From Candidatus Moraniibacteriota bacterium (GTDB lineage: Bacteria; Patescibacteriota; Minisyncoccia; Moranbacterales; DUUL01), in assembly GCA_012841575.1 (NCBI GenBank), contig DUUL01000039.1:38954-102953 (forward strand): 64,000 nt of DNA, in the 5' to 3' direction. Within the stretch, counting starts at the first letter, position 1. Each line of letters begins with the position of its first letter. Shown here piece by piece: positions 15,713-20,260 of the stretch. The translations under genes were made by a program, and so were the position numbers. The notes under the pieces are model-generated. The model did no database searches. It was not told the origin of the DNA and saw only the letters and a list, made by a program, of their open reading frames with translations.

Positions 15713-18700
15713 ATGAGCAAAATCAAAAATTTTATTGCTGACATTATTATTCCACATCACGACAGAATTGATTTGCTGGAAAACTGTCTTAGTTTTATTG
15801 ACCAAAGAAAGTTCAATGTGATCGTAGAGAGTGGGGGAACTTTTGCGCAAAATTGCAACCGTGGAGCCAAGAAAGCTTTAACTGAAAAGCTTATTTTTTT
15901 AAATGATGATGTGGAAATTGAAAACTCTTTGCTTTTAGAAATGTGTGATAAAAAATCAGATATTGTTGGAATTTCTCAGACAATCGAGCATTTTCCTGGA
16001 GTAATTTTTGGCTTGGGTATGAATTTTAGTCGAGAAAAGTTGTCAATCTCATTTTCAATGAATCGAGAAGAATTATTTTTTCCTTCTGGATTTTGTTTTT
16101 TAATTAAAAAGAAATGCTGGGAGCAATTGAATGGTCTTGATGAAGTGTATCAAAATGGTCATGAAGATGTGGATCTTTTTATGCGAGCAATCGAGGCAAA
16201 AGCAAGTTTTGCTTTTATTGATCGACCAGCTAGACACCTGCACAGTCAATCAGCAGGAAGACATGATAATCATGATAGAAATACAAATTTATTTTGGGAA
16301 AGATGGAATGAATTGAGAATTGAAAATTTGTTAAGAGAAAATAAAGATCGGTTAGTAGTAGATCGGGGATTTTTTAAGTGGAAAAATTTTGAACGAGGCT
16401 TAGATGAAAGCGACTTTAGCCAAAAATTTAGAGAGTTTTATTTAGATAAAGAGACAGCTGAGATTGAATTTTCTGATAATATTGATCTAGAGAATGAGTT
16501 GGTGCAAAGAAATTCATTTTGTGTCAACTTTAAAGACGCTAAATTTACTCAGCTTTTCAAAAAACTAAGTCTAGAAAAAAAGTTTAATGAAGGAGTACAA
16601 GTTTTTTTATTAATGGGAGATTATGGCAAATTTTTCAAAATCAATCCAAATTTAGATCAGTCATATTTAGATCATTACAGTAATTTTAGCCTTTGGTTTG
16701 CAAAAAAAGAGTTGCTAACTGCTTCTTTTATTTCTCATTCAGCTGGTCGCTATGGAGCAGAAAAATCATTATCCAATCTTTTGCAAGAAATCACTCAACG
16801 AGGAGTTTTGGCACAGGTAATTATTCCAGAAAATGGCCCGATTGAAGAAGAGTTACTTGACTTGCCAATTGCATTAGAAATTTGTGAAACTCCCTGGAGC
16901 ACAAAACAAAAGGATTTAGTGCGAGTGAGTATTCTGAGAAAATTAGTCATGGAAAAAGCAATTGAATCTGGCAGGAAAATTGCTAGATTTGGAGCAGATT
17001 TAGTTTTTAGTAATACTTCGGTGATTGATGGAGGTGCTTGGGCGGCAAAAATGCTTAATCTTCCTCACATCTGGCGAGTTCTGGAGTATGGCAGGAAAGA
17101 ACACTCCATTGATTTTATTGATACAATTGAAAATAGAATTAAGTTTATTAATCAATATTCTGACAAGATTATTTTCTCTTCAGAAGGCTTGCAAAATTTT
17201 TATGGCAAAGAAATTGGATTTGATAAATTAGCGGTGGTGCCTGAAATTTTTGATCTTGAAGAGAAGGGAGATGAGAGCTTCACTCAATTAAAAACTTATT
17301 TTAAGAATAAAAAAGCCTTAAAAATATTAGTTATTGGTAACTTAGCCGAGGGAAAGCGACAAGAAGAGGCTGTTTTGGCAGTCAGTGATTTGGTAAAGCA
17401 AGGGAAAGAGGTGGAATTATTTTTAGCTGGTGGTCATGAAGATGAGAGTTATTTAACCAAGATTAAAGAGCTTATCGCTGTTAATGATTTAGCAAAAAAC
17501 GTTACACTGGGAGGTTATTGTTCTGAGATAAGGCAGTTAATGCAACAAGCAGATGTTGTTTTGTCTTGTTCAATTCTTGAAGGATTTGGGCGAACTTTGG
17601 TTGAGGCAATGTTGCAACGCAAGGCAGTTATAGGAGCTGCTTCCGGCGGAGTTAAGGAGTTAATTCAAGAGGGTCAAAATGGATTTCTTTATAAACCAGG
17701 AGACTATCGTGAATTAGCAGAAAAATTAAACTATTTGATTGAAAACTCTCAGGAAATTGCTCTATTGGGAGAAAAAGGCTATGCTTTTGCTCGAGAGCGC
17801 TTTCAAACTAAAGTTACTGCGGAGAAAGCCGTTAATCTTTTAAAGGAAGTTAAAAGTCAATCTAAGTTAACTGGACCCAATCAGGTAACTGTTGACTTTT
17901 TGGATGATTTTAGTCAAGAAACAGAAAATAGTCTAGCGGTTCTTTTGGAAAAAGAGAGACAACTTGTTGACCAAATAAGCAAGAATCAAATTATAACTAA
18001 TTCTAAATTTTGGAAAATGCGTAATTTTTACCTAAAATTAAAACATTGGCTGACTTTTGTTTTTCTCAATCCACGTAAGTTTTTCAAAAAAAGCATTAGA
18101 TTGCTTAAAAAAGCTTTTAATATTTTTAAAGAAAAAGGTTGGCGAGGGTTTTGGAAGGAATTAAAAATATTTTTAGCTAAAAATGGAATTTTGAAACCAA
18201 AAGCAGTCATTACTTGCAAGGATTTTTTGATTGTCTCTGGTTGTTATTTGGAAATGCCTCAAAAATATCGTTGTGATTTTCAAAAAGAGCAATTAGAAAA
18301 GCATGGACTAAAAGGAGACTTTCAATTTTTTACCGCAATTAATGATGCTTGGTTAAAATACTATGATGTCTTTATTTTTTACCGTACACCGATTACTCCA
18401 GCGGTGGAGTCTTTCATTAAACAAGCTAAGAAGTTGAATAAACTAGTTATTTTTGACATTGATGACTTAGTTTTTGATGAAAATTTAGTGAAAGGAAAGC
18501 ATGAATTTAAAGCGATGAATGCAGAGGAGAAAAAGATTTATCTGGATGGAATTCGGCGTCACAGAAAAACTATGCAATTGTGTGATTTTGGAATTGCTTC
18601 AACTGAAACAATCGCCGAGTATATGCGAAAAATCATTCCAACGGTTCTAATTAATCGCAATTCAGTGCCAGATGCATTGCTTGAACGTTCCAAAAAAGCA

Positions 18701-20260: not shown

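Follow-up and report, generated by a model that had tools for sequence, protein, structure and literature searches.

In a 64,000-nucleotide (nt) stretch of DNA from a Candidatus Moraniibacteriota bacterium (GenBank assembly GCA_012841575.1, contig DUUL01000039.1, positions 38,954 to 102,953; the whole stretch is referred to as the window), the open reading frame (ORF) at 15713..20260 is a genuine single gene for a four-module glycosyltransferase (GT). Its product is a larger relative of known multi-module polysaccharide-building enzymes and not a new system. We consider it probable that this protein is a membrane-associated, multi-linkage GT which acts on a polyprenol-linked glycan before export, in an ABC-transporter-dependent locus. 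The ORF begins with ATG at 15713, its stop codon ends at 20260, and none of its 1515 codons is an internal stop. The encoded sequence is identical to GenBank entry HHX58665.1, labelled "glycosyltransferase [Candidatus Moranbacteria bacterium]". A gap of 13 nt separates the start of the gene from the stop of the upstream GT2 gene (14791..15699), and the next gene already begins at 20247, an overlap of 14 nt, indicating that the ORF lies within a tightly packed plus-strand operon. The G+C content of the window is even throughout (32–39%). The gene and the segments of its product, with positions in amino acids (aa), are the following.

15713..20260, plus strand: the four-module glycosyltransferase gene, a complete ORF of 1515 aa
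15713..16312, plus strand: D1, mini GT2-like GT-A module, aa 1–200, with DXD-like FLNDD (D65, D66) and the motif NGHEDVDL
16313..16717, plus strand: L1, folded alpha/beta region without family, aa 201–335, the segment least conserved relative to the ortholog (44%)
16718..17857, plus strand: D2, canonical GT4 (GT-B) module, aa 336–715, EX7E motif E623..E631
17882..17998, plus strand: long coiled-coil-like helix, aa 724–762, from the AlphaFold2 model
18005..18067, plus strand: FWK-box helix, aa 765–785, SKFWKMRNFYLKLKHWLTFVF, the motif running on as LNPRKFFKK, from the alignment and the AlphaFold2 model
18071..18181, plus strand: cationic amphipathic helix, aa 787–823, hydrophobic moment up to 0.77, the counterpart of the helix found at the N-terminus of stand-alone dual-GT proteins
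18203..19252, plus strand: D3, divergent GT-B module, aa 831–1180, with DIDDL and KSE.K..E invariant in its family and canonical EX7E absent
19253..20257, plus strand: D4, GT4/WsaF-like GT-B module, aa 1181–1515, EX7E motif E1424..E1432

A first, sequence-only reading of this DNA had described one 1515-aa chain combining four GT-type modules with a helical FWK linker, and the intact ORF, the domain scans and the AlphaFold2 models bear this description out. Domains were called by scanning the whole protein against Pfam and then scanning six segments separately. The whole-protein scan returned three separate Glycos_transf_1 stretches and a weak match to GT2. Glycos_transf_1 was matched above its cut-off by both D2 (111.7 bits; best NCBIfam matches EpsE and BshA) and D4 (66.5 bits; WsaF_N and WsaF_C matches were sub-threshold), while D3 matched Glyco_trans_1_4 with 45.9 bits and, weakly, TuaH. 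The model of aa 1–830 (pLDDT 88.7, pTM 0.73, built on 39 sequences) contains a compact alpha/beta D1 and a GT-B-type D2, and that of aa 795–1515 (pLDDT 91.3, pTM 0.86) predicts a GT-B fold for D3. The two-Rossmann GT-B folds modelled for D2 and D4 are nearest to solved GT4 enzymes, with HepE, BshA and PglA being the best Foldseek matches of D2 (TM ∼0.8).

Scanned alone, D1 just passes the cut-off of Glyco_tranf_2_2 (PF10111; 27.4 bits, cut-off 27.3) and falls short of those of Glyco_tranf_2_3 (PF13641; 25.6 bits, cut-off 27, E = 1.5e-5) and PF00535 (19.5 bits, cut-off 23.3). In a BLASTP comparison with the bona fide GT2 protein encoded by 14791..15699 it displayed 29% identity (E = 1e-21), the two sharing a YQNG.EDVDL block. 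Gaps account for 45 columns of this alignment, and the largest of them, ∼25 residues, extends from the VVDNxSxD region through the next strand; the N-terminal nucleotide-binding region of canonical GT2 enzymes is incomplete in D1. Judging from the order of strands and helices in the model, D1 appears to be short of one beta-alpha unit before the DXD strand. Two acidic residues, D66 and E151 (the latter in the ED motif), are nonetheless conserved in at least 90% of the 76 family members retrieved.

The stretch between D1 and D2 is, according to the model, more than a plain spacer: the core of L1 (aa ∼212–332, window 16346..16708) is predicted to adopt an alpha/beta fold with pLDDT mostly of 76–90. 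L1 (aa 201–335) scanned alone matched no family, and when it was used alone as a query the ortholog P0002, described below, was the sole match at E <1e-3. A derivation of L1 from a remnant FkbM methyltransferase, the domain found at this position in P0189 and P0200, is unsupported by this search.

The third module is divergent at the site of the EX7E motif, where it carries GKSEIKYTEAAL. The glutamates E1094 and E1099 stand there at a spacing of 4, and the stretch reads KSEIKYTE, or KSE.K..E in the family. Among 50 members of the D3-D4 family both DIDDL and KSE.K..E are invariant, and ESFSYPPLEM is mostly so, its remaining positions being at least 90% conserved.

Full-length orthologs and independent assemblies argue that the fusion is no assembly artefact. 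The sequence-only reading would have been contradicted by orthologous loci with the domains in separate genes, together with an assembly error joining them here; the closest ortholog, P0002 (1511 aa, 67% identity, aligned over the full length), turned out to be fused too. Its neighbours match those in the window, with a 302-aa GT2 upstream and a DUF2142 protein downstream. The 90% cluster of P0002 has 37 members; of the 15 listed, 13 reach the full 1511 aa, and they derive from many different Logan, JGI and ENA assemblies. A near-identical 1515-aa ORF is present in a separately assembled JGI metagenome contig, and the exact protein sequence is found on a GenBank contig of 107,831 bp belonging to a metagenome-assembled genome, of which SecY and enolase of the window are likewise a part. 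The fusion is thus retained in both known orthologs, whose linker regions stay in frame. Identity between the two proteins is 68% in D1, 44% in L1, 57% in D2, 51% in the helical region L2 (aa 716–830), 81% in D3 and 79% in D4, D3 being the best-conserved segment. A HMMER search of 1.84 billion representatives, seeded with aa 1–1200, recovered the same architecture only in P0002, and when the genomes of GTDB species were scanned for orthologous loci, just two unrelated weak matches (22% identity) came up.

More distant relatives carry the two halves of the protein separately or recombined with other modules (P0190, P0069, P0189, P0074 and P0193). P0190 (783 aa, 42% identity) is a stand-alone D1-L1-D2-FWK protein, P0069 (1186 aa) corresponds to D2-FWK-D3-D4, and in P0189 (1474 aa) an FkbM methyltransferase replaces D1 in front of D2-FWK-D3-D4. 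The gene downstream of P0190 does not encode a D3-D4 homologue, so that its locus is not merely a split version of ORF 15713. The D3-D4 half is common as a stand-alone protein of ∼725 aa, with 478 matches at E ≤1e-5; the 120 relatives listed are 41–64% identical, nearly all at 96–99% coverage, and they come from Patescibacteria, Ruminococcus, Paenibacillus, Clostridiaceae and Bacilli, among others. D1 has relatives of 45–50% identity in dozens of proteins, including stand-alone ones of 203–228 aa. Other chains with four GT modules, all uncharacterised, are P0191 (1622 aa) and P0194 (1587 aa), both D3-D3-D3-D4, and P0217, which is GT2-GT2-D3-D4.

The paralogies proposed from sequence alone were recovered, albeit as distant ones: D1 with ORF 14791..15699 (the QNG.EDVDL block, at the 29% identity given above) and D3 with ORF 5108..6298 (38% identity over 304 aa, E = 1e-51). 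The further proposal, that the gene had been built by fusing copies of neighbouring genes, did not hold. D1 is 29% identical to its neighbour versus 45–50% to proteins elsewhere, and D3 38% versus 41–64% (together with D4). With nearer relatives outside the locus, ORF 15713 was assembled from widespread pre-existing modules and not from local duplicates. In the explanation that we favour, the gene is a fusion of two pre-existing units, an N-terminal half (mini-GT2, linker domain, GT4 and the coiled coil with the FWK helix) known by itself from 783-aa proteins, and a C-terminal half (the amphipathic helix and a rigid GT-B/GT-B pair) known by itself as a widespread protein of ∼725 aa in Firmicutes and Patescibacteria.

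The two halves are joined by L2, which matched no family when scanned alone (aa 716–830) and which in the AlphaFold2 model forms three long helices (aa 724–762, 765–785 and 787–823). The second of these carries the FWK box, a stretch of ∼32 aa (SKFWK.R..Y...KH...F.FLNP.KF.KK) located after a coiled coil in four of the GT proteins that the locus encodes. The boxes are located as follows.

18002..18097, plus strand: FWK box in ORF 15713, aa 764–795
12705..12800, plus strand: FWK box in ORF 11886, aa 274–305
15637..15696, plus strand: FWK-type box (FWR helix) at the C-terminus of ORF 14791
∼10166..10270, plus strand: degenerate FWK box in ORF 9221

No Pfam family corresponds to the FWK box, which is also present in proteins of other organisms (P0003, P0004, P0200, P0228 and others). 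Aa 759–792 of ORF 15713 are 74% identical to aa 269–302 of ORF 11886..13799. Recent gene conversion between the two was considered and rejected, given a nucleotide identity of 71% and the same codon in just 13 of the 25 identical residues; a protein identity of 74% against only 71% in the DNA indicates that the box is held by selection and not by gene conversion. The FWK box may be a membrane- or complex-docking element.

The gene is embedded in a glycan locus, of which the following genes are relevant here.

5108..6298, plus strand: single-module GT-B of 396 aa, the D3 paralog (38% identity)
6319..7101, plus strand: Wzm, ABC-2 permease (ABC2_membrane)
7085..8437, plus strand: Wzt, ABC_tran ATPase with the Wzt_C carbohydrate-binding domain (Wzt_C E = 1.3e-19)
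8454..9176: methyltransferase
9221..11827, plus strand: 868-aa protein with methyltransferase, coiled coil, degenerate FWK helix, GT2 and a C-terminal domain
11886..13799, plus strand: 637-aa protein, GT2 – coiled coil/FWK box – GT2
14791..15699, plus strand: upstream GT2 of 302 aa with a C-terminal FWR helix, the distant D1 paralog
20247..21602, plus strand: DUF2142 polytopic membrane protein, its start overlapping the end of the large gene by 14 nt
21611..22522, plus strand: GT2 with a hydrophobic C-terminal tail, as read from the sequence

The GT2 at 21611..22522 is a putative GtrB-like polyprenyl-phosphate sugar synthase. A DUF2142 gene directly follows also in locus L001 and in the Ruminococcus-type loci L003 and L004, the order at a Ruminococcus-type locus being Wzm/Wzt, a stand-alone dual-GT protein and DUF2142. 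The protein encoded by 9221..11827, a candidate chain terminator, resembles in its layout the terminator-polymerase proteins WsaE and Klebsiella pneumoniae O7 ORF6; its coiled coil contains QKDQKI-type repeats, and its C-terminal region of 268 aa lacks a Pfam match and contains the motif TIDDDIHYPDDY. A terminating role would fall to the methyltransferases of the locus. Separately, the Wzt protein has between ATPase and Wzt_C a K/E-rich, probably helical spacer of ∼65 residues, which seems unusually long. In L003 (10001..14366, on a Ruminococcus-type metagenome contig) tandem paralogous dual-GT genes of 725 and 728 aa lie between Wzm/Wzt and DUF2142, with four GT-B modules distributed over two polypeptides where the window has one four-module gene.

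Likeness of the protein to polymerising GTs of ABC-dependent pathways, as suggested from the sequence alone, fits this context of Wzm, a Wzt with Wzt_C and a methyltransferase-coiled-coil-GT protein. In the characterised pathways WbdA contains two or three GT modules, one for each linkage, and the logic of a terminator coupled to the carbohydrate-binding module of Wzt, which recognises the terminal cap, is established; in WbbB and K. pneumoniae O7 ORF6, GT modules occur along with coiled coils (PMC11231755). A Gram-positive precedent for such a layout is provided by WsaE and WsaF of the Geobacillus S-layer glycan (PMC2943079). DUF2142 proteins have been proposed to be GT-C-type extracytoplasmic enzymes of rhamnose cell-wall polysaccharide loci, and in the rhamnose-polysaccharide (rgp) loci of Streptococcus thermophilus they have been noted together with "large multidomain glycosyltransferases" (PMC9746298, PMC12599335). 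The gene pair in the window may be a counterpart of that S. thermophilus pair. The protein may plausibly be a multi-linkage synthase of the kind represented by WbdA, WbbB or WsaE.

With WbdA (Escherichia coli O9a/O8; K. pneumoniae O3/O5) the protein shares the type of a soluble or peripheral chain with several GT4-type modules in a Wzm/Wzt pathway, together with a terminator that methylates the chain and the carbohydrate-binding domain of Wzt, counterparts of all of which are present in the locus; the GT4 fold is shared as well. WbdA, however, has two or three modules, all of them GT4, and is recruited to the membrane by a separate coiled-coil protein, WbdD, whereas ORF 15713 encodes four modules, a mixture of GT-A and GT-B, and its own internal helical amphipathic segment. 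WbbB (K. pneumoniae O12/Raoultella terrigena) and O7 ORF6 are likewise large, with mixed-fold GT modules and a coiled coil, and serve ABC-dependent O-antigen pathways. Their coiled coil serves as a molecular ruler between the terminating enzyme on one side and two polymerising GTs on the other, while in ORF 15713 the helical segment is short (∼100 aa) and lies between GT modules, and a terminating module is absent; an architecture like that of O7 ORF6 is found instead in the neighbouring ORF 9221..11827. Relative to WsaE and WsaF of Geobacillus stearothermophilus, the WsaF similarity stays below Pfam cut-offs and ORF 15713 has no methyltransferase module. The closest counterparts of the C-terminal half, dual-GT proteins such as those of Ruminococcus (P0139), Paenibacillus (P0140) and Patescibacteria (P0073), are colinear with aa ∼795–1515 (41–64% identity, ∼98% coverage), and this likeness extends to the N-terminal amphipathic helix (aa 2–29 of the aa 795–1515 model) and to the downstream DUF2142 gene; they possess two GT modules, which in ORF 15713 are preceded by a mini-GT2, a linker domain and a GT4. 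When the literature was searched by phrase for four-GT-domain enzymes of bacteria, only eukaryotic complexes and a giant-virus case were returned. The differences from WbdA, WbbB and WsaE are quantitative and architectural variations only: one GT module more than in any characterised example, the pairing of one minimal GT-A module with three of the GT-B type, and putative membrane helices in the middle of the chain.

In the mechanism that we propose, the basic and aromatic central helices would keep the enzyme at the cytoplasmic face of the membrane, where its four modules would transfer sugars from nucleotide donors onto a polyprenol-diphosphate-linked glycan. D1 would act as an inverting GT-A enzyme, D2 and D4 as retaining GT4 enzymes and D3 as a GT-B enzyme, each module presumably forming one type of linkage, as in WbdA. 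Most likely the D3-D4 pair would be the polymerase core for the repeat unit, with D1 and D2 supplying further linkages of the backbone, adaptor or branches. The finished chain would be capped by a methyltransferase of the locus, bound by the carbohydrate-binding domain of Wzt and exported by Wzm/Wzt, after which the DUF2142 membrane protein might modify it outside the cell, drawing on a lipid-linked sugar made by the neighbouring GT2.

Several observations weigh against this proposal. The canonical EX7E motif was looked for in the D3 sequence and not found, searches of the PDB with the D1 and D3 sequences yielded no close solved relative, and all members of the D1, D3 and D3-D4 families are biochemically uncharacterised. 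D1 could be weakened or non-catalytic, being one beta-alpha unit short and barely reaching one Pfam cut-off. The amphipathic helix fits an in-plane membrane anchor, a membrane association which we infer from sequence features alone. Polymerisation may also reside in others of the cytoplasmic GT modules, of which the locus encodes five or six more. The cluster yielded no initiating phosphoglycosyltransferase (ORF 3967..5064, evaluated as a WecA-type initiator, was set aside as it carries an MraY signature), and hints to the donor sugars are limited to a GalE-type epimerase encoded in the locus and to RmlD elsewhere in the window.

Among the alternatives, it is quite possible, if somewhat less than an even chance, that the modules work at different stages, for example with D1 and D2 building an adaptor, a second glycan or a branch and the polymerisation of a disaccharide repeat left to D3-D4 alone, and that the fusion merely secures co-localisation and stoichiometry. 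The halves do occur separately and recombine freely in the five proteins named above, and Ruminococcus-type loci have the dual-GT protein alone beside Wzm/Wzt, whereas the retention of the fusion in two orthologs of 67% identity speaks against such an arrangement, which departs from the favoured multi-linkage enzyme only in the division of labour.

That only some of the modules are catalytic, with fewer than four linkages being formed, seems unlikely to us, and the truncated D1 or the motif-divergent D3 would then be the likeliest acceptor-binding or scaffold elements. A parallel exists in the inactive GT domains of the eukaryotic EXT1-EXT2 and CHSY-CHPF polymerase complexes. For D1 such a role would agree with the ∼25 absent residues of the GT2 nucleotide-binding region and with scores at or below Pfam cut-offs; against it stand the conserved D66 and E151 and the existence of stand-alone forms of 203–228 aa, since stand-alone proteins consisting of an inert D1 would be pointless. 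For D3, the absence of canonical EX7E and the weak family scores are opposed by the highest conservation between orthologs and by acidic and basic motifs that are invariant across 50 members.

Less likely still, in our estimate, is that the single chain is a self-sufficient assembly line for a four-linkage repeat and that the FWK box is a common docking or membrane-targeting element gathering ∼10 cytoplasmic GT modules into one membrane-bound glycan factory; if true, such a four-linkage assembly line would exceed the characterised bacterial polymerases of the pathway, which have a maximum of three modules. Finally, a long ORF created by mis-assembly or a sequencing error joining adjacent GT genes, for which a metagenome-assembled source and the separate halves of distant relatives might speak, is effectively refuted by the independently assembled JGI ORF, the exact sequence in the 107,831-bp contig, the 1511-aa ortholog in 13 of 15 listed cluster members and the linkers conserved in frame.

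Multi-module GTs encode the structure of polysaccharide repeats in ABC-dependent pathways, one module per linkage, and the characterised examples, which have at most three modules, come from Proteobacteria and Geobacillus. A multi-linkage enzyme of four modules in Patescibacteria would extend this logic to a lineage in which envelope glycans have scarcely been studied. It would also flag a widespread uncharacterised family of DUF2142-linked dual-GT proteins in gut Firmicutes, such as Ruminococcus, as a likely polymerase core. It is chiefly of value in giving enzymology and glycoengineering a lead, the experimental targets being the D3-D4/DUF2142 module and the FWK box, which lacks annotation.

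Further genes located elsewhere in the window are the following.

39003..39731, plus strand: undecaprenyl-diphosphate synthase (UppS)
56113..56988, minus strand: RmlD of the dTDP-rhamnose pathway
58167..60794, minus strand, and 60820..63164, minus strand: two further GT4 genes and a DUF4012 protein

In view of RmlD, rhamnose may be among the sugars used. Immediately downstream of the glycan locus, 23013..28854 encodes three consecutive, probably secreted proteins with DUF5648 repeats (YRFYS...HFYT), which occur alongside SpoIID domains or peptidase S8 domains of the subtilisin type. A tRNA-Thr gene with the anticodon CGT (28872..28945, minus strand) separates the peptidase S8 gene from prfB. 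The latter gene, for release factor 2 (29023..30126), has an apparent classical programmed +1 frameshift: a short frame opens with the ATG at 29023 and closes at CTT TGA C (∼29089–29095), and the +1 frame continues into ORF 29257..30126. At ∼44000..47000 the GC skew turns from positive to negative where the genes switch from the plus to the minus strand in convergent orientation.

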